Assembly (NCBI GenBank): GCA_047600535.1
Contig: JASGKR010000001.1
Location: forward strand, 2,719,638-2,783,637
Direction: 5' to 3'
DNA: 64,000 nt
Source: Phycisphaerales bacterium
GTDB lineage: Bacteria > Planctomycetota > Phycisphaerae > Phycisphaerales > UBA1924
A model generated the notes under the pieces. It did not search any database, was not told the DNA's origin, and was given only the letters and a program-made list of their open reading frames with translations. Below are positions 1 to 12,518 of this stretch, piece by piece; the first letter of the stretch is position 1, and every line of letters begins with the position of its first letter. The position numbers were made by a program, and so were the translations under genes.

Positions 1-136
1 CTCGGCTGCTACGCTGAAGATCGTCGGCAGGTTCTGGGGGTACACACCCTTAGTGGTCACCAACCACAGGAACGCGTGGCGCGGGCGTACGAGGCGGCGC
101 ACACGCTGGCATGGCGGTTGCCACAGCGTGGGAATC

Positions 137-1126
137 ATGACTGCACGAGCACCCGCTGGCATCTCACCGCCTATCTCCCACACTGACATCCGCCGCTTTG
201 CCGAGGAGAAGGTCAACCTTCCCGCCGAGGACGCCAAAGAACGTCGTGCAAAGGTCAATGATCTGCGCGAGAAGCTGGCGAAGTGGATGAAGGATCATCC
301 CGACTGCGGCATCGCCAAGTCGTACCTGTCCGGAAGTCTTGCCAAGGGTACAGCTCTCCGTACTTCCAGCGACGTAGATGTGGCGCTGTACATCACGTAC
401 GACGGCGAACGCAAAGCGAGCCGGCAACTCTCCAACTGGATCGCCGAGCGCCTACGCAAGGCGTATCCACAGATGAGCCCGGACCAGATCGAGCCGCAGG
501 AATACTCCGTCAAGATCAAGTTCAAGGAGGCGGGTGTCGACGTGGACATCGTGCCCGTCTTCTACGAGGGTGACCCGCAGGACAAGGGCTGGCTGGTGTC
601 CAAGAAATCGGGTCGCTTGATGCTTACCAGCATCCCGATGCACCTCGCGTTTACGCGCAAGCGCAAGGACGCCCAGCCGCAGCATTTCGCTCAGGTCGTC
701 CGCCTCATCAAGTGGTGGGCTGCCGAGCAGAAAGCTAAGGACGCGAACTTCAGGTTCAAGTCGTTCATGGTCGAACTGATCTGCGCCCACCTGGCCGACA
801 ACGGGCAGGACTTCTCCGACTACCGGGCTGGTATGGAGGCGTTTTTCGACTACATCGTCTCTACAGGTCTGAAGAAGCGGATCGCATTCAAGGACAACTA
901 CCCGGTTACCGACCTGCCCGCGGCGATCACCGACCCCGTGCAAATCTTCGATCCGGTAAATGCCAAGAACAACGTCGCATCGCAGTACACCGATGAGCAT
1001 CGCCGCCTGATTGTTGAGGCCGCACAGGACGCACTCGACGCCCTGAACGAGGCTCACACAGCCGCCACGAAGCAGCACGCCGTCGAAATGTGGCGAGTCG
1101 TGCTCGGCCCTTCTTTCAGAGGATAA
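137..1126 (+). CDS. cGAS/DncV-like nucleotidyltransferase (CD-NTase), CBASS cyclase. The ORF extends to 53, and 137 is the first plausible ATG.
   Basis: Pol-beta NTase motif GSLAKGTALRTSSDVDVAL (G[GS]x...DhD) is present. A downstream acidic cluster VDVDIVP gives the third catalytic residue. Length is ~330 aa. The gene is immediately followed by HORMA-sized, TRIP13-like and NucC-like genes. Confidence 0.6.
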   Translation: MTARAPAGISPPISHTDIRRFAEEKVNLPAEDAKERRAKVNDLREKLAKWMKDHPDCGIAKSYLSGSLAKGTALRTSSDVDVALYITYDGERKASRQLSNWIAERLRKAYPQMSPDQIEPQEYSVKIKFKEAGVDVDIVPVFYEGDPQDKGWLVSKKSGRLMLTSIPMHLAFTRKRKDAQPQHFAQVVRLIKWWAAEQKAKDANFRFKSFMVELICAHLADNGQDFSDYRAGMEAFFDYIVSTGLKKRIAFKDNYPVTDLPAAITDPVQIFDPVNAKNNVASQYTDEHRRLIVEAAQDALDALNEAHTAATKQHAVEMWRVVLGPSFRG

Positions 1127-1129
1127 CAC

Positions 1130-1639
1130 ATGACGCAGAGTCACACGACAACGCAGACCTTTTCTCGCACTGACGCACGCTATATCGCCGGAAAAGTTGC
1201 CGCGGACCTTCGGCAGCTTTCTCAGGCGTACGGCGAGCCCAGCGAGGACCACATCGGCAAGCTGATGGGGGAACTCACTGAGTACCTTGCGGATGGGTAC
1301 CTCGACCGGGTCACCTATGGCTTTCGCAAAGGCGAGGAGTGGGTCATTGGGCTGAAGTACAGCGCAGCGGACATCGGCTCACTGACCTCTGATGATCGCT
1401 CGGGGCGGGTTCCGCGCGGGGTCGATCGAACTGGGGCTTCCTGGTATTCATTTCTCATTCTTAACAGCAAATGGAACGCGCTCACCGCAGAGCAGCGCAC
1501 GCAGTACGAGCGGGCATTGCCGATCCAGCGATCAAACGGCGCTGAACCCTCGGCCGGAGCACGCGGTTGGATTGAGGATAAGACATACTCGTCATCCGGT
1601 GGTGGCGTGCGGTGCGCGTCGGCTGGGGGTGCCACTTGA
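1130..1639 (+). CDS. HORMA-domain-like CBASS regulator (call made from size and position)
   Basis: A 169-aa ORF starts 4 nt after the CD-NTase stop and overlaps the downstream AAA+ gene. This size and position match HORMA in cdnC-HORMA-trip13-nucC operons. No motif was verified. Confidence 0.4.
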   Translation: MTQSHTTTQTFSRTDARYIAGKVAADLRQLSQAYGEPSEDHIGKLMGELTEYLADGYLDRVTYGFRKGEEWVIGLKYSAADIGSLTSDDRSGRVPRGVDRTGASWYSFLILNSKWNALTAEQRTQYERALPIQRSNGAEPSAGARGWIEDKTYSSSGGGVRCASAGGAT

Positions 1640-2589
1640 GCAGTGTCGATTTATTCGAGGACGTCGTAACGCTGCCGGACGCACGTGGTCAAGCCAACTA
1701 TGACCGGCTTGTAGGCTTGGACGACTACAAGGCACGGCTCGTAAAGGAGACTCTGCTCCTAGTCGATCCGAGCCAGCTGAGCGACTGGAACAAGAAGCAC
1801 CACAACGGACAGCTCGCGGCCGTCGAGTACTTCCACACCCGTCCGCCTCTATTCGTCCTTGCCGGTGACGTCGGCACCGGTAAGACGGCCTTGGCCCGCT
1901 CGTTCGGGAATCAAGTCGCCAAGCTGGCCAAGGTGCGGGTTGAGTTGTACACGCTGAGCCTCAACGCACGGGGGAGTGGGGCGGTCGGAGAGATGACGAG
2001 ACTCATATCTGGTGCATTTAGACAGGTACGCGAGGCCGTTGGCAAGACCCGCGGCAATGACGGCAAGGCTGGTCGTGGAATTATCTTGCTCATCGATGAA
2101 GCCGATGCGCTCGCCCAATCGCGCGAAGCAGCGCAAATGCACCATGAGGATCGAGCAGGGGTGAACGCACTGATTCGCGGCATCGACGACCTAGCAGCTG
2201 AAAGGCTTCCGATCGCGGTCGTCATGTGCACCAACCGCTTGGACGCAATTGACCCTGCCGTACGTCGACGCGCAGCTGCCGTGTTTGAATTCGCGCGCCC
2301 AAGTCGCGACCAGCGACTTGAGGTCATCAGGGCGGGACTCGCGGGTAGCGGCTTCTCCGAACGGGTGCTCGGCCAGGTTGCCGACGCCACCGGGGAGGCG
2401 ACCGGACGCGGCTACGGCTTCACCTACTCCGATCTGACCCAACGCCTTATCCCGACGGTTGTGCTCGACGCCTTTCCCGAGCGTGGCCTGGATGGTGCCC
2501 GCGCAATCGAGATCGCAAAAAGCCTTAAGCCGACTCCTCCCTTCCGTGAACAGGCGGTAGTGGCATCGCCCGGAGGACATCATGGCTGA
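1612..2589 (+). CDS. TRIP13/Pch2-like AAA+ ATPase of CBASS type III. The likely true start is TTG at 1636, overlapping the upstream stop.
   Basis: Walker A LAGDVGTGKTAL and Walker B ILLIDEADAL are present. Length is ~320 aa. The gene sits between the HORMA-like and nuclease genes. Confidence 0.65.
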   Translation: MRVGWGCHLSSVDLFEDVVTLPDARGQANYDRLVGLDDYKARLVKETLLLVDPSQLSDWNKKHHNGQLAAVEYFHTRPPLFVLAGDVGTGKTALARSFGNQVAKLAKVRVELYTLSLNARGSGAVGEMTRLISGAFRQVREAVGKTRGNDGKAGRGIILLIDEADALAQSREAAQMHHEDRAGVNALIRGIDDLAAERLPIAVVMCTNRLDAIDPAVRRRAAAVFEFARPSRDQRLEVIRAGLAGSGFSERVLGQVADATGEATGRGYGFTYSDLTQRLIPTVVLDAFPERGLDGARAIEIAKSLKPTPPFREQAVVASPGGHHG

Positions 2590-3331
2590 GAAGCCCACAC
2601 TAAAGCGGCTATTTCAGGGCGTCCAGAAGGAACTCGGCTCAAAGCTAGAGACCGCGCGAGAGGCTCTGGATCATCCTTCTTCGAAGGGCACAAAGACCGA
2701 AGACTACTGGATCGGGATGTTCCGTAATTATCTGCCGAAACGATACGACGTTCACCGTGCATTCGTGATCGACTCTAAGGATGTGCTCAGTGATCAGCTC
2801 GACATCGTCGTACATGACCGACAGTTCTCGCCTTTTGTGCTAAACCTCGACGGTGAATATTTTGTGCCTGCCGAAAGCGTCTACGCCGTACTCGAGGTCC
2901 GACAGACCATGAACGCGGCAAATGTGGAGTACGCGGCGGGAAAGATTGGGAGCGTTCGCAAGCTGCATCGGACGAGCCTGCCCATCCGCCACGCGGGCGG
3001 CGAGTACCCGGCCAAACCGTTGCACGACATCCTCGGAGCACTCGTCACTTTTGACAGCGACTGGACACCGCCATTTGGCGATGCCTTCCGGGCGGCAATT
3101 GCGAACGCACCGGCGATCGGTCGTCTCGACATGGGGTGCGCCGCCAAACAGGGCGGCTTTGAAGTAAAGTACGCACCGAACGAGCCTCCTGCAGTTGCAG
3201 CGGAGCGCTCCGAAGCCGCGCTTGCGCTGTTTCTGCTGCGGTTTATCGCGCGGCTCCAGTCCATGGCGACTGTCCCCGCCATGGACGTCCTGGCCTACGC
3301 CCAAGCGATCCCGAGGACCGATGTCCCCTGA
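2582..3331 (+). CDS. NucC-like restriction-endonuclease-fold effector nuclease
   Basis: The 249-aa protein has an N-terminal region HPSSKGTKTEDYWIGMFRNYLPKRYDVHRAFVIDSKDVLSDQLDIVVHDRQFSPFVLNLDGEYFVPAESVYAVLEVRQ. This closely resembles the NucC family, with a PD-(D/E)xK-like core IDx...D..LEV(R/K). The gene overlaps the AAA+ gene stop. Confidence 0.6.
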   Translation: MAEKPTLKRLFQGVQKELGSKLETAREALDHPSSKGTKTEDYWIGMFRNYLPKRYDVHRAFVIDSKDVLSDQLDIVVHDRQFSPFVLNLDGEYFVPAESVYAVLEVRQTMNAANVEYAAGKIGSVRKLHRTSLPIRHAGGEYPAKPLHDILGALVTFDSDWTPPFGDAFRAAIANAPAIGRLDMGCAAKQGGFEVKYAPNEPPAVAAERSEAALALFLLRFIARLQSMATVPAMDVLAYAQAIPRTDVP

Positions 3332-4232
3332 GAAGCGACCGATTAAACGACCGCCACCCACCACGGCCACCCTACGTCGACTCCTATTGAATTGGGAGCT
3401 TATCGATAGCGACGGCGGGCCGGGGACTAAGCCCGACAGTCGTGGGTCGTGGCACCTCTTCTGCCATCTGGCCGCCGCAGGCTCAATCCGTCGCCTCTCG
3501 AACGGCGGAGCCGCTTGGGTTGGAATTCACTATGACCGGCGGAAGGAGCTGTACGAAGCCGCCGTTTTCACCACCCTCTCGGGCCGTAGAGTGTCGTTAC
3601 CCTTTCGCTCGCGCGAGACCCACCGCCTGCTCGAAGAGAGTGAGCTCTGCGCCTATATGGAAGGAGCTTCACGCGGGCACATCCTCGACCGCTCGGCGAA
3701 CGATCCGGGCAACCCGACGAAGGACGACCGCCGCCAGGACTACGACCAGAACGTCAACTCGCCCAACGACGGCGGCCCAGTCTGGGAGATGTGGACGGTC
3801 AGCCGTGACATCCGCCCAGAGAACAAACTCGGCAGTTCGCTTGTCGAAGCCTACGCCGAGCTCCTGTCTGTGCTGGGAAGCAGGTTTGCGGCAGTCGTGG
3901 CCCGTGGGCGGATGGAGCCCGAGTACGGGCACCTCCGGCAGATGTGCGCCCTAATCGACGCCGGGTTCATCACACCGGAAGAAGCGATGACCGACATCGA
4001 GGCGGTGGCCATTCCGCCAGATGTGGAGCGGATTCTGCTTGAAGCCACGCCCGAGGCGTTTGTGACGGCCGCGGAGATGCTGGCGAAGAGGCGAAAGAAG
4101 CCGTGCTATTGGATGTACAGCCGAAAAGTCTCCAGCTTCGCCAGCGCCTCGCTGCTGCGCCGACTGGTGAAGACGCTGGGGCCCGCCGTCGCCCCCGAGC
4201 CGACTCGCAAATCACGGAATCGTCGCCACTAG
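3321..4232 (+). CDS. hypothetical protein, translationally coupled to the nucC-like gene
   Basis: The ATG at 3321 overlaps the nucC-like stop at 3329-3331, giving a ~303-aa product. No recognisable motifs were found. The gene is convergent with the downstream minus-strand genes. Confidence 0.45.
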   Translation: MSPEKRPIKRPPPTTATLRRLLLNWELIDSDGGPGTKPDSRGSWHLFCHLAAAGSIRRLSNGGAAWVGIHYDRRKELYEAAVFTTLSGRRVSLPFRSRETHRLLEESELCAYMEGASRGHILDRSANDPGNPTKDDRRQDYDQNVNSPNDGGPVWEMWTVSRDIRPENKLGSSLVEAYAELLSVLGSRFAAVVARGRMEPEYGHLRQMCALIDAGFITPEEAMTDIEAVAIPPDVERILLEATPEAFVTAAEMLAKRRKKPCYWMYSRKVSSFASASLLRRLVKTLGPAVAPEPTRKSRNRRH

Positions 4233-4937
4233 GTCCTCGACGATCCCGGCCTCAACCTCTGCAAAGCGACCTTTGCCCTTCTTACCACAGGCCGCCCCAC
4301 GGACGCAGATCACGTCCGCACCAGCCGCCCACAGCTCGGGCAACTGTTCCTTGGTGATCGAACCCGCCAGCCACGCTTCCTTTCCCTCGTCGTGCATGGC
4401 CTTGCACCACTTGGCGATCGCCTTCGTCTTGTGGTAGTCCAGGAGCCCGCGACCGATGCCTTTCTCAAACGTGTCGACAAGTACGCCGTCTGCTTTCGTC
4501 TTCACAGCCAATTTGATCGAGTCTTTGAGAGGCTTGAAGAAACGGTCCATTCCGTCGTCCACGAAGACGGCGGGGAAGAGCTTCTTTTTCGGGAACCAGT
4601 GCCGAACCGTCCGCACGATCTTTTCGCCCTGATAGATCGCTGCTTCTAAGGGCAACTCCGCAAGCCCGAACTTGATCAGATCGGCGCCAGCGATCGCGAC
4701 GCCGAGCGCCGCCTGGCATGCATTGGCCCGAGAGTGCTGGATCTCGCCGATGTTTGTCGAGATCTGGACCTTTGGGTACTTAGCTCTCACCTTCGCGCAG
4801 ACTTCCGCGATGTTGAGCGGGTAGGGCGTACCGAGGGCGGAGGCCGGGTATTCGACATCTGCGATCATCGCCCCACCTTCGGCGCAGGCGAGGGCCTCTA
4901 CTGGACCGCGAACGCTTACGAGAAGTCGCTGTTTCAT
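4212..4937 (-). CDS. MfnB/DUF556-like class-I aldolase-type TIM-barrel protein, (5-formylfuran-3-yl)methyl phosphate synthase family
   Basis: Motifs present are LLVSVRG...GGAMIADVEYP, GADLIKFGL, VLVDTFEKGIGRGLLDY, and WLAGSI...ADVICVRGAACG, which together resemble MfnB. Length is ~241 aa from MKQRLL. Confidence 0.5.
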   Translation of the reverse strand: MKQRLLVSVRGPVEALACAEGGAMIADVEYPASALGTPYPLNIAEVCAKVRAKYPKVQISTNIGEIQHSRANACQAALGVAIAGADLIKFGLAELPLEAAIYQGEKIVRTVRHWFPKKKLFPAVFVDDGMDRFFKPLKDSIKLAVKTKADGVLVDTFEKGIGRGLLDYHKTKAIAKWCKAMHDEGKEAWLAGSITKEQLPELWAAGADVICVRGAACGKKGKGRFAEVEAGIVEDLVATIP

Positions 4938-6571
4938 TTCTTTTTCTTCTTTGTGACCTTCTTTGCCGCCTTCTTGGCCTTCGCGCCTTTCTTGCGCTCG
5001 ATGTGGCAGACCCGCACGTCGAAGAATTTCGCACGTAGCGCGGCGCATCCATCGTAAAGACTAAGCCGACTGAAAAACGGCAGATCATCCGGCAGCGTCT
5101 TCGTGGGCGCATCGGCGATCGCGTAGACGATCCGTAGCTGCCGGGTTGGCACGCCCGTACTGAAGTCCTTCCACGGTGCTTTCGACTTCCACTTTGCCGG
5201 GATCTTCGCCAGGACCGCATCACGGAACGGCTGCGACCCGGCAATAAGCTGGGCCGAGTTCTCCCCCTGCTTGATGAGCGCACTGAAGGTCTGGGAGCTC
5301 TTCCACGCCTTTACATGGATGAAATGACCATCCTCCGAAACGAGATCGCAGGCCTCTACGGCATTGCCATCGGCATCGACTCCCTTACGGTCTAGTGCAC
5401 AGAACCGGTCGGGCTGCTTCTTGGCGACACCGTCGTTGTACTTGCCTTCGCCCCCGCTTCCTGTCCATGGGGGTAGGTAGTTGGGGTCGCTCTCTATGTC
5501 GATGTCGATGAAGGCGGCCTTGCAGTCGTCGATGTACTGTTGATCCAGCCGGTACCACTTCCCGTCCTTTAGCGCATACGGCTTCCCGTTGTAGTGCGTC
5601 TGAAACGTCGCGAGGTGTGACAGCGGCTGCTCAACGACAACGGACCCTTTTTCGTGAAGGCCACGGACGTTTAGTTGGTCGAGCTTGAGAGAGGCCCCGT
5701 GAGCCGCCCTCGCCCCAGCGACAATCGCTTCGACGTCTAGGTCCTCTAGCGGCTCCCATTGGTCGTCGGTCCATGAAACCTCGAAACTGTGAACAGAGCG
5801 CCAATCCTCCGCCTCCGGCAGGAAGAGGCCGATCTCTTTGCACGAAACAGGCTTGAGCGCGGCAAGCAACTTGCCGTCAAGTGCCTGCGTTACCGTTGCG
5901 TCAACGACGCGCTCGTAGCGTTTGAGGGCGGCAAGTCTTGCCTTCGGTTTCTTCGCGATTGCCGCAACAAGGCCATCGCAGAGCAATTGCAGTTCCGTAA
6001 AAGGGATGATGCCGCCGATCATGCAGGAGGTCGCGCCCGTAATTCTCTTGCCGAGCGCGGGATCGTTGCTCTTTCCACCTAGCCGGTGCACGTGGTCTCG
6101 CGCTCGCTGAAGCGGAAACGTCGCTAAGTCGCCCGGCTTGCTCGCGATCTGGAGCTTGTGAAGACCGTCGAACCCGACCGCCTTCGACTCGATCTCCTTG
6201 ATCGTGTTTGCCTCCAGCAGACGGCAAGCGGCTTCGAGTCCGAAGTCCTCCTGCACGAAAGTCTTTTCCAAAGCCATGAAGCCTTGACCGTACGTCAAAG
6301 CGCAAACTCGCCCGGATGTGGTCTTGAGAATGACGACAAGTGAGTTCGAGCGGTTGAGGACTGTCTTTGGCTTGGGGATGGCGCAATGCGGGAGGACATA
6401 CTCCAGCCAAGAGGGGACAGTGGTTTTGTCGCTTTGAAAGTACGCCGTAACGGGGAACGTCACTCCGGTGACCGCGACCTGTGTATATCCGCCCTTACCC
6501 AAGCTCGACGGTGCCATCGCATCGTCGAGGTTCTTCACCGAGTCTTTGAACACGTAGATGGTGTACTTCAT
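4934..6571 (-). CDS. hypothetical 546-aa protein with poly-lysine C-terminal tail
   Basis: A long ORF runs from MKYTIYVFKD. The C-terminus is AKAKKAAKKVTKKKKK. A possible nuclease-like D..ED..IHVK motif lies near residue 420. The 4-nt overlap with the upstream gene suggests an operon. Confidence 0.5.
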   Translation of the reverse strand: MKYTIYVFKDSVKNLDDAMAPSSLGKGGYTQVAVTGVTFPVTAYFQSDKTTVPSWLEYVLPHCAIPKPKTVLNRSNSLVVILKTTSGRVCALTYGQGFMALEKTFVQEDFGLEAACRLLEANTIKEIESKAVGFDGLHKLQIASKPGDLATFPLQRARDHVHRLGGKSNDPALGKRITGATSCMIGGIIPFTELQLLCDGLVAAIAKKPKARLAALKRYERVVDATVTQALDGKLLAALKPVSCKEIGLFLPEAEDWRSVHSFEVSWTDDQWEPLEDLDVEAIVAGARAAHGASLKLDQLNVRGLHEKGSVVVEQPLSHLATFQTHYNGKPYALKDGKWYRLDQQYIDDCKAAFIDIDIESDPNYLPPWTGSGGEGKYNDGVAKKQPDRFCALDRKGVDADGNAVEACDLVSEDGHFIHVKAWKSSQTFSALIKQGENSAQLIAGSQPFRDAVLAKIPAKWKSKAPWKDFSTGVPTRQLRIVYAIADAPTKTLPDDLPFFSRLSLYDGCAALRAKFFDVRVCHIERKKGAKAKKAAKKVTKKKKK

Positions 6572-6680
6572 GGGGTGCTGCCTTGAATACATTCCGAACC
6601 TACGACTGGGAGCAGGCCGGCCGTGACCGCACAACACTAAACCTTGCCGCGGCCGATTGCTTCACAAAACGCAAAACTAT

Positions 6681-7508
6681 CTAGTCGGCCTTTTTAATGA
6701 CGCGCCGCACCCACTGCTCTAGCTCGCGACCCTCATATTTCCCCAAACGAAATTGCCGCTGTTGTACGTAGCGGTTCGCGGGGTCGCTGAGATAGCTCGT
6801 GGTAATCATCAAGCCCTTGGTCGCGCCAAAGTCGTCACGAGCCGCGGATAGCTCTCTCACCTTATCGAGGCTGACCGCACGTGTCGGACCATATTTCTTG
6901 GCTTGCCAAACACTCTTGACTGCACCGAGAATTCGGTCGTTTCGCACACCCACGACATCAATTCCGTCATCGCCTCCTTCTTTTGTGATTTGAACTTTAA
7001 AACCATCTTCCTCGAGAAGTTGTCCGATGAGTTCCTCAAACTGACGCCATGAGAGTGCGTGCAAGCTACGCCCAGCGAGAAGGTGATCTCGAGCCAGTCG
7101 AAGTACGCTCGGCGCAAGGCCGATCCACATCGGGATTTTTGGCGGCGCGACGAGGCCGGTATCGGGCTTCCACAACTTGGGCCTGCCGAGAGGGCGTACT
7201 TCCAGGATGGACTCTTTTGGCCTCCCGAGCTGCAGTAGCCACGATCGAATTTGAGCCAATAAGAGATCTGGGGAAGCCTCCCGTTTTCGTTCGACTTCTG
7301 CTTGTCCCCGGAAATCCCAGACGTTGACGTCGAAGTCACCGGACATCGACCGTAGTGCATTGAATAGATGACCGATGGCTTCGGGGCGCTGCTTTCTACT
7401 GAACCCCTCCACAAATTTCACCAGACCACCGTCCACCGATTTCGGGCTGCGTGCCGTGCGGGCTGTTTCGATGAGTGATACGGCTCTCTTGGCGACTTCC
7501 TGACGCAT
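6681..7508 (-). CDS. Mrr-cat (type IV restriction endonuclease N-terminal-like) domain protein
   Basis: The C-terminal half is WRQFEELIGQLLEEDGFKVQITKEGGDDGIDVVG...VWQAKKYG...KGLMITTSYLS. This fits the Mrr_cat PD-(D/E)xK fold with DG.D...Q.K. Confidence 0.55.
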   Translation of the reverse strand: MRQEVAKRAVSLIETARTARSPKSVDGGLVKFVEGFSRKQRPEAIGHLFNALRSMSGDFDVNVWDFRGQAEVERKREASPDLLLAQIRSWLLQLGRPKESILEVRPLGRPKLWKPDTGLVAPPKIPMWIGLAPSVLRLARDHLLAGRSLHALSWRQFEELIGQLLEEDGFKVQITKEGGDDGIDVVGVRNDRILGAVKSVWQAKKYGPTRAVSLDKVRELSAARDDFGATKGLMITTSYLSDPANRYVQQRQFRLGKYEGRELEQWVRRVIKKAD

Positions 7509-8561
7509 ACACACCTCGATTCAAGGCCAGCCCTGACAATCTACGACGGAAGCTTAAGATCTACTGACCTCGGATAGATTTAGTTGCGAGCATTTTACTG
7601 GGGCGTGCCGCTTACCTGGGAGCCTGGGACCGTTAATGGCGAAGCGGTCGAACCGGCCGATCAGTGGGCGCGTGACTTTAACCGAGCCACCGCACCGGCG
7701 GCTCAGCGAGGGTCGGTGCGGCATCAAGGCAGTGCTTCTGGGGAAAGGACTCGCTGCGGGCGACCGCTCACTGGTAGCTTGAAGCACGGGTTTCTTTCTG
7801 CACGTTCCGCGCTTGCACTCTGCAAGATTTGGTGTAGGCTCATTGGCAGTAACGGCCCACCCACTTCAGCCAGGAGCCTCGACTGCGGGCTTCTTTGAAG
7901 GGCCAGCGAAACCGGACTCGGAACCGGGAAAGAGTGATCCGAGCGGCAAAGGGGCAGCCAGACCCGCCGAATGAACTGTGACTGGCCCGCCAGCGAGCGG
8001 AACACGCGCAAATCGGAGGCATTGGTGTCGAGCATTCGGGCGCGTGCCCGGGCACCTTGTCGTCTTTGTCCGTTTCGCTCGGAACGGGCGTGGTGAACGC
8101 TCTGCGGGGTACGCCTCCGCCTGCCAGACGTTCCGGTGTGTCTTCGCGCGTTGAAGGCCGAAGACTCGTTGGAGCGTGCGATGCGAATTCCGAATTGGAT
8201 AGTGAGCCTGCTGAGTGTGGAGTGTGAAGCGTGCCGCACGACATCAAATGGGACACGGGTACGAACACGACTGAGGGTCGGGCCGTTCCCGATCATGGCG
8301 TGCTGCCTCGCCCTGTATCTGGTGGCCAAGACCATCGTGAAAGCGTGCGCGGATGCGTCTCTGCCTTAACGGGGGCGGGCGGGGCCCTCCCCGCCATCGC
8401 ATTGGCTCCTGCCCGAATAACCCCCACTCCCTGACGGTCGGGGCTCGTGATAAGGAAGGATGCACCCGTGAACGGATATCCGGAATAAACGGAACGGCTG
8501 CCGGAACCCCCGCCTCCCGCGCTGAAGTTGCGCCTTTGGGTAAACGAAGACGCTTCGGCGT

Positions 8562-8688
8562 AGTCGTGAGTGCTGAGTCCTGAGTCTCGAGTGAAGCCCT
8601 GAGTTCGGAGTCGTGAGTAGCAAGACTCCCCACCCCCCTCCCCCCCTTCCTTCCCCCACTCAGCACTCACGACTCAGCACTCAGGACT
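8562..8688. repeat. Imperfect long inverted repeat: ~8 tandem NNTGAGT units, a C-rich spacer (ccccacccccctcccccccttccttccccc), then ~4 ACTCAGN units
   Basis: Seen directly in the sequence. agtcgtgagtgctgagt at 8562-8578 is perfectly complementary to actcagcactcacgact at 8658-8674. The repeated 7-nt units allow several pairing registers. The element lies ~60 nt upstream of the 8747 ORF. Confidence 0.6.
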
Positions 8689-8746
8689 CTTCGTTCCTCT
8701 GCTCAACACTTCCCGTTTCTCCTCAACTTCCAGAAAGGACTCTCCC

Positions 8747-9439
8747 ATGCCCGTTCTCCCCAGCACGAAGCTCGGCCGCATCGAGTGGTGCGAGGCTCGC
8801 ATCGCCGCGTGGACCGCCGCGCCGACCACCATCGGCCTCACACTCGCCGAGGTCACGGCGCTCGGCGCCCAGATCAAGGATGCTCGTCAGGCCTACGACG
8901 CCGCCATCAAGGCGAAGAACACCGCCAAGGACTCGACCGTCACCAGCGACAACGAGGCCTCGACGATGACGACCCTCGCCGCCAACGCCATCAAGCACAT
9001 CAAGGCGTACGCCGCCAGCTCGGCCAATCCGGATGCGGTGTACGCCGCGGCCTCGGTCCCGCCGCCCGCCGCGCCCGGCCCCACGCCGCCCCCCGGCCAG
9101 CCGACCAATTTTACGTTCGACCTCGACACCAACACCGGCGGCCTGGTCGTGCACTGGAAGTGCACCAACCCCGCGGGCGTCAGCGGCGTGGTCTACACCG
9201 TCCGCCGCGCGATCGGCGCTGCGCCCGCAACCACGGTCGGCGTCACCGGCGAGAAGAAGTTCAGCGACACGACGATCCCCGCCGGCTCGTCGAGCATCAC
9301 GTATCAAGTCTTCGGCCAGCGCGGCAGCCAGATCGGCCCCGCCAGCAACCCGGTGACGGTGCGCTTCGGCTCCGGAGGCGCGATGCAGGTCTTTGAAGAG
9401 ACCGCGGACACGAGCGCCAACGTGAAGCTGGCGGCGTGA
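8747..9439 (+). CDS. hypothetical secreted protein with fibronectin-III-like region
   Basis: The ORF is 230 aa. A PAAPGPTPPPGQP linker is followed by a beta-rich region TNFTFDLDTNTGGLVVHWKCTNPAGVSGVVYTVRR. AGGA lies upstream of the ATG. Confidence 0.5.
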   Translation: MPVLPSTKLGRIEWCEARIAAWTAAPTTIGLTLAEVTALGAQIKDARQAYDAAIKAKNTAKDSTVTSDNEASTMTTLAANAIKHIKAYAASSANPDAVYAAASVPPPAAPGPTPPPGQPTNFTFDLDTNTGGLVVHWKCTNPAGVSGVVYTVRRAIGAAPATTVGVTGEKKFSDTTIPAGSSSITYQVFGQRGSQIGPASNPVTVRFGSGGAMQVFEETADTSANVKLAA

Positions 9440-9512
9440 GAGGTGGAGTCGCGAGTCTCTTGTCGCAAGTCGCGGGACGAAGTCCGACTGGCAAGTCTGT
9501 GAATGTGATCAA

Positions 9513-9554
9513 GGCCCCGGCGTACTGCCCGGGCCTTTTCATTTCTGCTTTTCG
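9513..9554 (+). terminator. rho-independent terminator
   Basis: The hairpin ggccccggcg-tact-gcccgggcc is followed by ttttcatttctgcttttcg. It lies 75 nt after the 8747-9439 ORF. Confidence 0.55.
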
Positions 9555-9564
9555 CATCTCGTTT

Positions 9565-9800
9565 GACGAGGCCCATGCGCAAGCTTTGGCTCGGTGTGCG
9601 GCGGAATGTGAGAACATAGAGAATCGAAACGCCGTTGCGCGAACGACCGCGCAGCCCAGGCTCGCGCCAGGGCCTCGTTAAAGCGACGACGCCCATGCGC
9701 AAGCTTGGGCTCGGTGTGCGATGGACTGTCGGGCACCGCGAGTGTTGCGGCGTCGTTGCGCAGACGACGCGCAGCCAAGGCTCGTTTTTCGGGCCTTAGA
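9565..9800. repeat. ~120-bp imperfect tandem duplication (2 copies)
   Basis: gacgaggcccatgcgcaagctttggctcggtgtgcg at 9565 matches gacgacgcccatgcgcaagcttgggctcggtgtgcg at 9685. Both copies also share a ...cgttgcgcRRacgacgcgcagccMaggctcg tail. The repeat lies between convergent genes. Confidence 0.55.
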
Positions 9801-11028
9801 ACGAGAAGTTGGTGTTCGGATCCGTCGCGGTCGGGCCTCCCGCGGGCAGGTAGCTGCCGCCGGAGATCGGGACGGGGTTGAGCGTCATCGGAACGATCGG
9901 GGCGACGGCGTTGTTGACGCCGATCACGTAGTTCGCCCCCGTGTTACCGCCGGCCGTGTGGCGGCCGACCCAGTTGAGCGTCCCGGTGATGTCGACGCCG
10001 CGGACGTTGCCGGTGGTGTGATTGCCCTCCAGGCGGTTGCGGGAGCCAGTGATCATGATCCCGCCGCCGGGGTTGGATGCGCCTGCGAGATTGTTGGTGC
10101 AGGTGTTATTCAGCAGCTCGCACTGGTTGACGGCCGCGATCCCGAAGTTCTGGTTGCCGAGCGCGGAGCAGCCGTGGATCGCGCTGCCGGTGAGGGCGGA
10201 GATCCCCCCGCCGGTGTTGGCCGTCGCCGTGCAGGCGCGGATGAGGAGGGCGTTGTTGGCGAAGATGCCGGCGCCGGTGTTGTTGTTCGACGTGCAATCA
10301 ATGACCTGCGATCCGGTGCCGACGGAGATGCCGATGCCGGCGTTGGTCGCCGCGCTGCAGGATTGGACGACGCCGGACGTGACCGTGACGATCCCGACTC
10401 CGCCGTTATTGCGGGCGACGCAGTTGCGGATGACCGCAAAGTCGCGCACCGAGATGCCGTCGGTCGTGTTGCCGTCGACCGTGCAGTCCTCGATAGTCAC
10501 GCGGTCGCCGCCCCTGATGCCGGCACTGTTGGCGATGAAGCGAACGTTGCGAATCGTCGCCATCTGGGGCGCCCCGACGGAGATGTTGATCCCGATGCTG
10601 CCGCACTGCGTCACAGTGCCGTTGAGAATCGTGATGTTGGACTGGCCGTCGAGGTACATGCGGATGCCCGTGCCCGGACCGCTGCCGCTTCCGCGGACCA
10701 TGAAGCCGTTGAGGTCGATGGTCACGTTGCTGGCGCCGATGGCGATGCCGGTCGTGTTCGCCCCTTGCACGACGTCGGCTTCGAGGTAGTAGCTTCCCGG
10801 AGCGGTGATCTCGAAGGTGCCGAACACCCCGCCGGGAGTGTTGGTGCTGTTGATGGCGATGCGCGGCTCAGTCTTGGCGATCTTGTTGTAAAGCTCCTGT
10901 GTCGTCTTGCCGGTCGGCGCGACCGCGCCGGCGGGAGGATCAAGCGGACCGAAGGCGCTGGCTGTGGCGGCGGCGACGAGGGAGGAGGCGAGTGCGACGA
11001 TAAGGCAGCGGCTGGAAGGAATGGTCAT
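9796..11028 (-). CDS. secreted right-handed parallel beta-helix repeat protein, paralog A, with Sec-type signal
   Basis: The signal peptide is MTIPSSRCLIVALASSLVAAATASA. The conserved family N-module is GPLDPPAGAVAPTGKTTQELYNKI...PRIAINSTNTPGG...APGSYYLEADV...IDLNGFMVRGSG. This is followed by many beta-helix rungs (NxxxGIxxxxS). Confidence 0.65.
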   Translation of the reverse strand: MTIPSSRCLIVALASSLVAAATASAFGPLDPPAGAVAPTGKTTQELYNKIAKTEPRIAINSTNTPGGVFGTFEITAPGSYYLEADVVQGANTTGIAIGASNVTIDLNGFMVRGSGSGPGTGIRMYLDGQSNITILNGTVTQCGSIGINISVGAPQMATIRNVRFIANSAGIRGGDRVTIEDCTVDGNTTDGISVRDFAVIRNCVARNNGGVGIVTVTSGVVQSCSAATNAGIGISVGTGSQVIDCTSNNNTGAGIFANNALLIRACTATANTGGGISALTGSAIHGCSALGNQNFGIAAVNQCELLNNTCTNNLAGASNPGGGIMITGSRNRLEGNHTTGNVRGVDITGTLNWVGRHTAGGNTGANYVIGVNNAVAPIVPMTLNPVPISGGSYLPAGGPTATDPNTNFSF

Positions 11029-11706
11029 GGCGAGAGCGTACCGGCGGTCACCTGCTACGCGGGTGCGGCGCGCGAAATTCCGCACGATTGCCTACTTCGC
11101 TGCGGGGTTGCAGTGGCGCTCCGCACGAGGCCCAAAGGCAAGCCTGGACTTTTAGCACGCTAAGCAGCTCGCCCGTGCCTTCTCCCCTTTCGCTACGCCT
11201 TCGGATTGAAAACACGGAGCTCAAAGAGAACACGGAGAAAGGCATGGGTACGGCCGCTGCCACCCCGCCCTTGCTTCCTCCACCCTACACCCCACACTAA
11301 CCGCCATTCTCAACGAACTCCACTCCGGTCTTCTCGCACGCTGCACAAGTTTCTCGCTACCACTCATGCGCTCTGCCGTTCTTTTCTCTCTATGTTTTTC
11401 TCCGTGCTCTCCGTGAGCTCCGTGTTTCACCGACTTTCCAAACAAGCCCTCGTAGCCGCCAAGCGTGCCGGGGTTTTCAAGCCGGCACCAGATTGCGCAG
11501 CTTGCCTAGTTACTAGGTGAGTTCCCCCAACTCAAGAGCTTCGTCAACCTTCGAGTCATGCACGATCTACAAAATCCCCGAATCGCGGGGCTTGCAACTG
11601 CATTCATTATCTGTATTGTGTGTGCGTCGGATGAACACCGCCGGTGTGGGCGGCCCGACATACACGCGAGCCCGTCGAGAGACGTGGCCAAAGAGGAGAG
11701 AGAGTC

Positions 11707-12518
11707 ATGAACAAGCTGACCGCTGTCGCCGTTGTTGCTATCGCCGCGCTCGCGAGCGCCGCTTCTGCCAACATCGTTTATACCACAGGTAATTACGAGC
11801 AGAACTTCAACTCGCTTGCGCTCAGCGGCACCAACCAGTCGTGGACCAACGACAGCACGATCAGCGGCTGGTTCCTCTACCGCGCGCCGCGATCTCGCCT
11901 TTCGCAATTACCACGTACAACGCCGCGCCCGGCTCTAACACCACCGGCAGCTTCTATAGCTTCGGCGCGGCTTCCAGCAACGAACGTGCGTTCGGCGCCA
12001 TCGGCTCCGGCGGCACCTACTACGGCTCACAAGCCAATGGCGCAGTGTGCGGCTGGATCGCCGTCAGCCTCACCAACGGCACCGCCGACACACTCACCGA
12101 TGTGACGATCGGCTTCGACGGCGAGCAGTGGCGCGACGGCGGCTCGAGCGGCGTCACGCCCGCAGCGCAAACGATGGTTCTCGAGTACGGCTTCGGCGCA
12201 ACCTTCGGCGCGGTGACCGCCTGGACTGCGCCGGGCGGGGCGTTCAACTGGAGCTCGCCCGTCATCACCAACACGGGCGGCGGCGCGATGGTCGACGGCA
12301 ACGACGCGGGCCGCGTCGCCGGCCGCGGCGGCACGATCAGCAACCTGGCGTGGGAGCCGGGCCAGACGATGTGGGTCCGCTGGGTCGAAGTGAACGACGC
12401 GGGCAACGACCACGGACTGGCGATCGACAACTTCTCGTTCTCGGCCACGCCCACGCCGGGTGCGGCCGCCGTGCTCAGCTTCGGCATGCTCGCCGCGACG
12501 CGCCGCCGTCGCGCTTGA
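11707..12518 (+). CDS. secreted protein with PTPGA...RRRR (PEP-CTERM-like) C-terminal sorting signal. It is interrupted by a frameshift near 11885.
   Basis: The signal peptide is MNKLTAVAVVAIAALASAASA. The C-terminus is ATPTPGAAAVLSFGMLAATRRRRA. Two overlapping ORFs (11644-12105 and 11841-12518) join with a 1-nt shift at WFLYRA|AAISPF. Confidence 0.5.

Follow-up and report, generated by a model that had tools for sequence, protein, structure and literature searches.

The first 4,232 nucleotides of a 64,000-nt stretch of a Phycisphaerales bacterium genome (GenBank assembly GCA_047600535.1, contig JASGKR010000001.1, positions 2,719,638 to 2,783,637 of the forward strand; the whole of this stretch is called the window) hold five closely packed open reading frames (ORFs) on the + strand, in DNA of roughly 60% G+C, and in each of the five G+C is distributed over the codon positions as in genuine genes. 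The first four, at 137-3331, read as a complete, intact-looking type III cassette of a cyclic oligonucleotide-based antiphage signalling system (CBASS) of the Escherichia coli MS115-1 kind, in the order cdnC, HORMA, trip13 and nucC. The fifth, ORF5, begins within the end of nucC, encodes a member of a rare orphan family and runs at its 3' end into a convergent gene for a protein resembling MfnB. The best explanation of the locus as a whole, which we consider highly probable, is a type III CBASS cassette that abuts ORF5, with ORF5 belonging to a separate pair with the MfnB-like gene. The CBASS operon is a routine planctomycete addition to a well-characterised system; its by-products, a clade of NucC nucleases with an Arg variant in the catalytic motif and the pair of ORF5 with an MfnB-like protein in which Lys27 is replaced by Glu, are worth more than the operon itself. 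Comparison loci that carry homologues elsewhere are numbered L001-L056.

The cassette and its nuclease

Specific models recognise each of the four cassette products. CdnC matches the PADLOC Cyclase model PDLC00808 (1.1e-130), NCBIfam CBASS_cyclase_a (410 bits, cut-off 200) and Pfam SMODS; its best PDB sequence match is CdnC of E. coli MS115-1 (6p80, 1.2e-99), to which it aligns end to end, and the catalytic GS...DxD...D residues are kept (SGSLAKGT ... DVDVA ... DVDIV). The HORMA protein matches Pfam bacHORMA_1 (3.1e-41; 141 bits, cut-off 35.6) and PADLOC HORMA (5.8e-53), with the MS115-1 HORMA protein (6p8v_H, 7e-30) as its best PDB match. The ATPase, with GDVGTGKT as Walker A and ILLIDEAD as Walker B, is recognised by PADLOC TRIP13 (3.2e-122) and Pfam AAA and is closest in the PDB to Rhizobiales Pch2 (6pb3, 1e-96), followed by the MS115-1 ATPase (6p8v_A, 1.5e-89). 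NucC matches the PADLOC Effector (NucC) model (4.4e-92), Pfam DUF6602 and, as its best PDB relative, E. coli NucC (6p7o, 1.7e-66). Of the features by which type III CBASS membership is judged, those that can be read from sequence (cyclase, adjacent HORMA protein, Trip13 ATPase and in-operon effector) are all present.

This architecture had been proposed in a preliminary description from gene order, sizes and motifs, and the hidden Markov model searches called for there bear it out. The nucleotidyltransferase, whose GS...DVD...DVD triad can be read in the translation, as can Walker A and B of the ATPase, is a CBASS oligonucleotide cyclase (CD-NTase, cGAS/DncV-like nucleotidyltransferase) and not a generic enzyme; the 169-aa protein, called HORMA-sized at the time, is a HORMA protein, and the 249-aa protein is NucC. 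Coordinates, sizes and motifs were correct, with small refinements of two starts. The cdnC frame is open from GTG 53 to 1126, and ATG 137 is its likely start because the resulting 329 aa is the length called in the L015-L017 homologues. For trip13, TTG 1636 creates a 4-nt TTGA overlap with the HORMA stop and fits the 317 aa called in homologues. Directly 3' of trip13, nucC overlaps it by 8 nt (2582-2589) and ends in a TGA at 3329-3331, giving an 11-nt overlap with ORF5. Further downstream, ORF5 and the MfnB-like gene overlap at their 3' ends by 21 nt, and the start of the MfnB-like gene shares 7 nt with the stop of the next gene, which encodes a DUF6119 protein (Table 1). Scans of 1-5200 and 1-9000 for promoters, terminators and repeats gave nothing above chance and no repeats flanking the cassette, and an Rfam search of 1-12000 returned zero matches.

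Table 1. Positions of the cassette, ORF5 and adjoining genes in the window
Feature	Coordinates	Strand	Basis
cdnC, predicted clade-C CD-NTase (CBASS oligonucleotide cyclase), 329 aa	137-1126	+	PADLOC, NCBIfam, Pfam SMODS, PDB 6p80
Single bacterial HORMA protein, 169 aa, expected CdnC activator	1130-1639	+	Pfam bacHORMA_1, PADLOC, PDB 6p8v_H
Trip13/Pch2-like AAA+ ATPase	1612-2589 (GTG 1612 or TTG 1636)	+	PADLOC TRIP13, PDB 6pb3 and 6p8v_A
nucC, predicted cAAA-gated restriction-endonuclease-fold DNA nuclease effector, 249 aa	2582-3331	+	PADLOC NucC, Pfam DUF6602, PDB 6p7o
ORF5, 303 aa, rare orphan family	3321-4232 (ATG 3321)	+	homologues, coding composition, AlphaFold2 model
MfnB-like (4HFCP_synth-fold) protein, 242 aa	4212-4940	-	Pfam 4HFCP_synth 1.1e-38, PDB 4rc1
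DUF6119 / TIGR04141 'sporadically distributed' protein, 567 aa	4934-6637	-	Pfam DUF6119 3.4e-95; TIGR04141 7.7e-91
Mrr-type restriction endonuclease-domain protein, 277 aa	6681-7514	-	Pfam Mrr_cat 2.8e-23; PADLOC mREase_IV and PDC-S02 ~1e-11

The type III CBASS of E. coli MS115-1 (PDB 6p80, 6p8v, 6p7o; bioRxiv 10.1101/694695, 10.1101/694703) has the identical four-gene order and a single HORMA protein, and the four proteins of the window align end to end with the solved ones, retaining the catalytic residues and those of the pocket for cyclic tri-AMP (cAAA). In contrast to that system, the host here is a Phycisphaerales planctomycete, the 3' end of nucC overlaps an unrelated gene, and NucC has the motif L-D-x30-E-V-R instead of I-D-x30-E-A-K and a Phe in place of the stacking Tyr81. 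By analogy, the mechanism published for MS115-1 most likely applies. Upon infection the HORMA protein would take a closed, peptide-bound state and activate CdnC, which would then synthesise a cyclic tri-AMP-type signal, whereas in an uninfected cell Trip13 would strip HORMA off and keep the system silent. The signal would occupy the three-fold pocket of NucC trimers and lead to hexamers, and these would cut DNA indiscriminately, resulting in abortive infection.

The published active-site motif of E. coli NucC is I-D-x30-E-A-K (residues 72-106). In the window it reads L73-D74-x30-E105-V106-R107, with the right spacing of Asp and Glu (D73 and E104 in E. coli) and departures from the strict form that include Ile to Leu73 and Lys to Arg107; membership of the family by overall sequence is beyond doubt. 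Arg107 is encoded by CGA at 2900-2902, two changes from any Lys codon. The operon could therefore be decaying, the Lys-to-Arg change in the catalytic motif having inactivated its effector, and in favour of this the published motif ends in Lys, as do all four distinct solved NucC proteins. However, among the window NucC and its 120 best database homologues the residue is Lys in 105 of 121 and Arg in 16, and the Arg sequences make up a clade that consists of the window protein and 15 of the 18 sequences nearest to it, or 16 of the closest 19 when the window is counted. The clade spans 73-98% identity and comes from different assemblies, on Phycisphaerae-type contigs and at varied sites; in other respects its members are complete and keep D74 and E105, a pattern that points to purifying selection. 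The remaining genes of the operon are all intact, and the PD-(D/E)xK lysine is substituted in some active nucleases, by Glu in BamHI and by Gln in BglII. Because Arg is kept across wide divergence, in intact operons at different genomic sites, the alignments argue for E-V-R as a functional, clade-specific variant rather than a sign of decay, which we regard as improbable. The Arg-for-Lys clade offers a cheap test of the role of that residue in a signal-gated PD-(D/E)xK nuclease.

Mutagenesis by Lau et al. found R53, Y81 and T226 of E. coli NucC to be required for cAAA-activated cleavage; in the same work V227 contacts the base, and H136 and Y141 latch the gate loop. When mapped in the gap-free parts of the 6p7o alignment, pocket and gate loop are both present in the window NucC, as R54, F82 (the aromatic residue is kept), T230, V231, H137 and Y142. 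A truncation of nucC at the junction with ORF5 was also considered and ruled out, as a variable tail of 7-9 residues follows DVLAYA in all cassettes, and the tail here matches it in length.

ORF5 at the edge of the cassette

ORF5 had been described as a fifth ORF of ~303 aa at 3321-4232 that overlaps the nuclease stop by 11 nt and has no recognisable domain, and it is as described. No model of Pfam, PADLOC, NCBIfam or PHROG matched it, and Foldseek searches of its predicted fold against the PDB and BFVD gave nothing reaching E 0.001. It does have conserved homologues, 28 of them at 43-100% identity (E<=1e-3) in a collection of 5.8 billion proteins. An alignment of 23 sequences contains 50 invariant columns, and an exhaustive profile search of 1.84 billion proteins extends the family to 89 cluster representatives, many of them fragments. 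The structure prediction suggested for the 303-aa protein yielded a confident AlphaFold2 (AF2) model (predicted local distance difference test, pLDDT, 81; predicted template modelling score, pTM, 0.81) with an N-terminal beta-sheet domain and a C-terminal helical domain; residues 114-163 are the most conserved stretch, yet are modelled as an unstructured loop. The G+C fractions at codon positions 1, 2 and 3 (0.64/0.51/0.76) are similar to those of adjacent genes. A chance ORF of G+C-rich DNA is rejected by the value of 0.76 at the third position, the conserved homologues and the confident model, and ORF5 stands as an orphan family of ~300 aa with a confident predicted fold and no known relative. 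The family is sporadic: a set of 185,579 species-representative genomes has four loci, which belong to Phycisphaerales and Acidobacteriota, and the metagenomic loci span 28-73% G+C. The same four in 185,579 weaken the idea of a hotspot anchored by ORF5 as a core gene and make it accessory island content itself.

The deposited annotation of the source metagenome-assembled genome (MAG; P0004, QM783_13140) calls just the last 191 codons of ORF5 and leaves the N-terminal ~110 residues unannotated, including conserved GGPG, WH and CHLA motifs. We rejected this 191-aa form, since conservation covers residues 15-112, with GGPG, WH and CH among them. The long, 303-aa form is, judging from the alignment, the correct one because conservation runs from about residue 15 onward. 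The next in-frame start after ATG 3321, a TTG at codon 22, would cut the conserved LRRLLLNW helix.

From the overlap with nucC the preliminary description had gone on to infer co-translation and, possibly, an accessory or second effector of the CBASS. Several points weigh in favour of such a fifth, translationally coupled component, be it an accessory regulator or a second effector, and against the separation of cassette and pair that we prefer. The overlap is genuine, leaves ORF5 no room for a promoter of its own and is retained in a second genome, L007, which shares with the window a tract of ~96-98% DNA identity (700-3700) that crosses the junction and ends ~380 nt inside ORF5. L026, from an unrelated organism, has the MfnB-like/ORF5 pair and another kind of type III CBASS on one strand and closely spaced, the pair being 51 nt upstream of the Cap4-CdnC-HORMA-Trip13 operon. 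Four independent lineages have CBASS genes no more than 7 kb from ORF5; in L008 and L003 the distance is 4-6 kb. The account of the cassette itself has its own weak points: every mechanistic step is inferred from homologues of E. coli and Pseudomonas aeruginosa, the Arg in E-V-R means that nuclease activity of the window NucC is not guaranteed, and the window opens at cdnC, so that the promoter or any upstream regulator lies outside view.

The close relatives of the cassette tell against a fifth component. Four cassettes of the same E-V-R clade (L015-L018; NucC 75-83% identical) have four genes only, and their blastn homology to the window covers ~161-3300 and stops at 3300-3301, inside the variable NucC tail. 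Downstream of them lie a restriction-modification pair of the ScaI type with integrases on either side, a phage terminase, or small genes of other kinds, and tblastn of the four loci found neither ORF5 nor the MfnB-like gene. In the same database NucC homologues number 2907 (E<=1e-20) and those of ORF5 28 (E<=1e-3), thousands against tens. The surroundings of ORF5 point the same way. Upstream of its homologues we find nuoGHI (L001), an insertion sequence element (L003), Wadjet and an integrase (L005), DUF6119/DUF1508 (L008), a decarboxylase and DUF3326 (L009), and an unknown 453-aa protein (L010). Comparison of fifth-gene homologues with NucC operons elsewhere, another check that had been proposed, put CBASS genes within 7 kb of ORF5 at 5 of ~50 loci, which represent four lineages (window/L007, L003, L008 and L026); most ORF5 loci lack a CBASS gene in the available sequence, on which absence was judged, many of the loci being short. 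In two of the four lineages ORF5 abuts the effector gene, on opposite sides of different effectors in the window and L026. Septu (7 loci), phospholipase D (PLD) nucleases, Wadjet and Gabija occur beside ORF5 just as often, as one would expect of any resident of a defence island. Recurrent co-occurrence with CBASS/NucC operons, the mark of a CBASS accessory, is not seen, and ORF5 matched none of the known CBASS accessory and effector families compared (Cap2/Cap3, CapW, CapH/CapP, SAVED, transmembrane effectors and others).

The best-supported conclusion is hence that ORF5 is not a CBASS component; it abuts the cassette and belongs to a separate conserved pair, the MfnB-like gene being its constant neighbour. 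That it is a fifth, coupled component of the cassette we consider very unlikely. A functional link between the two is unlikely in general, and there is little chance of a connection with CBASS specifically, the proximity to CBASS genes fitting co-residence in islands because the ~50 loci include many short ones and Septu is at least as frequent. With no intergenic space, ORF5 is probably carried on the CBASS transcript in this genome, as the 11-nt overlap suggests; this follows from the junction and does not speak for a shared function. Of the earlier inference, the overlap and probable co-transcription thus stand, whereas a shared CBASS function does not, given the cassettes of L015-L018 without ORF5. 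The overlap resembles close packing where a cassette ends more than designed operon membership, for which a stop and a start that overlap at the border of a mobile cassette give weak evidence.

The cassette is mobile, because near-identical cassettes occur at unrelated sites in other Phycisphaerae genomes, and it landed against a resident ORF5 in this genome. The nucC-ORF5 junction is common to L007 only, a close relative with flanking genes of ~75% DNA identity. Between the two, identity is 65-87% (mostly in the 70s) over 200-700, ~96-98% over 700-3700 and ~75% over 3700-4900. The middle block indicates a recombination tract of roughly 3 kb, from mid-cdnC to the first ~380 nt of ORF5, and with it a recent exchange of the cassette by homologous recombination between two related genomes. 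The identity blocks therefore imply that the CBASS-ORF5 junction was present in both lineages before its middle was exchanged. The first ~14 residues of ORF5 (MSPEKRPIKRPPPT) bear no relation to the M-x-x-R-G-x-Y-x-F N-terminus that longer homologues have, which fits a start recruited at the junction.

The MfnB-like partner of ORF5

An MfnB-like gene directly adjoins ORF5 in 14 independent loci (window, L007, L001, L003, L005, L008, L013, L019 and L022-L027), and in L009 it lies 4.5 kb away. The arrangement is convergent and abutting in all Phycisphaerales loci. Elsewhere the two are co-directional, with the MfnB-like gene upstream of ORF5 in L013, an Acidobacteria genome (4-nt overlap), and in L026 (zero gap), and downstream in L019. 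Because the pairing survives rearrangement across phyla, a classical signature, we take ORF5 and the MfnB-like gene to be functionally linked, and together they form a conserved gene pair across phyla. Roughly half of the more distant ORF5 loci are without the MfnB-like gene; ORF5 there lies beside unknown proteins of 301 aa and 599 aa.

MfnB is the 4-(hydroxymethyl)-2-furancarboxaldehyde phosphate (4-HFC-P) synthase of methanofuran biosynthesis (Methanocaldococcus jannaschii MJ1099; PDB 4rc1, 4u9p), and the ORF5 partner shares its Pfam family and is of similar length. It matches MJ1099 (4rc1) at 1.9e-20, but its score against the NCBIfam MfnB equivalog model, 118 bits, lies far below the cut-off of 304. 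In MfnB the catalytic Schiff base is reported to form on Lys27 (PMC6604932). In contrast to MfnB, all 16 ORF5-linked proteins, that of window 4212-4940 and 15 other copies, lack this lysine: D-[V/A]-E replaces D25-V-K27 of M. jannaschii, with Glu at the position of Lys27, while D25, K85 and D151 are retained. Their genomic company also differs, consisting of defence genes and not of methanofuran genes. To judge from these residues and from the score, the window protein is not a bona fide MfnB, and the ORF5-linked copies presumably form a distinct subfamily of different chemistry. On our preferred reading the partner is a member of the TIM-barrel aldolase family without the Schiff-base lysine of MfnB, and we take it and ORF5 to be a two-enzyme small-molecule module residing in defence islands.

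The 301-aa and 599-aa proteins, one or both of which are conserved neighbours of ORF5 in ~20 metagenomic loci (L028-L056) and at L014 8820-11521, found no match in Pfam, PADLOC, PHROG or PDB sequence searches. The N-terminal VYLSGPMD of the 301-aa protein is reminiscent of nucleoside 2-deoxyribosyltransferases. A hidden MfnB-like protein in the 301-aa neighbour was rejected, BLASTP similarity being nil.

Defence-island surroundings

In the window the pair is flanked by the CBASS cassette on one side and by the DUF6119/TIGR04141 and Mrr-type nuclease genes on the other. Other loci have other defence genes: Wadjet and a Gabija-like OLD/UvrD pair near ORF5 and its partner in L005, a type II CBASS 4 kb from ORF5 in L003 together with a diadenylate-cyclase (DAC) domain protein and a NucC homologue, and a Cap4-type CBASS with DUF6119 in L008. 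In L019 a PLDc_2 protein gene overlaps the MfnB-like gene by 4 nt, with pYEATS and TPR-S/trypsin proteins near. The commonest identifiable neighbour of the pair outside the window is Septu (PtuA ATPase and PtuB HNH), within 5 kb of ORF5 in seven loci (L009, L014, L023, L024, L025, L027 and L036; 39-62% G+C), with PADLOC scores of 1e-37 to 1.5e-50 for PtuA and 4.5e-56 for PtuB. In two of these PtuA comes straight after an MfnB-like gene, with a 13-nt overlap (L009) or a 17-nt gap (L024). Known Septu is a two-gene system for which no MfnB-like or ORF5-like partner has been described, and a literature search found no paper linking Septu with such genes.

These surroundings raise a different view of the pair, as an uncharacterised defence or conflict module in its own right or a shared accessory of nuclease-based systems (Septu, CBASS, PLD). 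It agrees with our preferred explanation on the independence from the cassette and differs on the role of the pair. The sporadic distribution (four of 185,579 genomes; metagenomic loci of 28-73% G+C) speaks for it, as do neighbours that are overwhelmingly defence genes: PtuA/PtuB in seven loci, PtuA directly 3' of an MfnB-like gene in L009 and L024, the PLDc_2 overlap in L019, CBASS in four lineages, Wadjet and Gabija in L005, and DUF6119 and Mrr in the window. The literature searched held no link between MfnB and anti-phage defence, and nothing relevant on DUF6119. Against it, the pair of L001 stands behind nuoGHI, where the visible sequence holds no defence gene, and a convergent arrangement, as in Phycisphaerales, would be unusual in a defence operon of two genes. 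Some further neighbours that recur have a biosynthetic look (an Orn/DAP/Arg-type decarboxylase, DUF3326, methyltransferases and a radical SAM protein). In about half of the loci ORF5 has the 301-aa and 599-aa partners and no MfnB-like gene, and no PADLOC model matched. A defence or accessory role in this sense is possible and, on balance, doubtful, and the wider idea of a defence-related module of any kind is about as tentative. Still a little less probable is the specific proposal of an undescribed two-enzyme island module that makes or destroys a small molecule, as its own defence system or as an accessory of nuclease-based abortive-infection systems. If this were true, the physical coupling to nucC in the window would be functionally meaningful. 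Found repeatedly beside Septu, CBASS and PLD nucleases, the pair is a reasonable candidate for defence-system screening.

The DUF6119 protein has homologues in other islands, in L007 (46% identity, in opposite orientation), L008 and L016 (85%), and is variable island content. No PADLOC model covers the window copy, and the DUF6119/TIGR04141 protein may be an undescribed defence gene.

At L026 629-8378, on a metagenomic contig of 47% G+C, eight co-directional genes follow one another with gaps of <=51 nt, in the order nucleoside-deoxyribosyltransferase/TIR-like, methyltransferase, MfnB-like, ORF5, Cap4 SAVED nuclease (9e-103), CD-NTase (1.3e-134), HORMA and Trip13. Here the pair stands beside a type III CBASS for a second time, independently of the window.

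At L003 11392-15192 (also in L004 and L011), the DAC protein has 895 aa and combines ADP-ribosylglycohydrolase and DAC domains. About 300 nt downstream of it, past a 69-aa ORF, lies the NucC homologue, 52% identical to that of the window, with E-I-K in its motif and without an adjacent CD-NTase. E. coli NucC binds c-di-AMP with a Kd of 2.6 uM (Lau et al.), and the L003-type locus could be a DAC-driven NucC system.

Further along the window, a segment with no convincing ORF and without an Rfam match carries, at 8562-8689, two short arrays built of 7-nt units (AGTCCTG x3.6 and CACTCAG x4.7), which are mutually reverse complementary and form a 32-nt inverted repeat, 63 nt apart.

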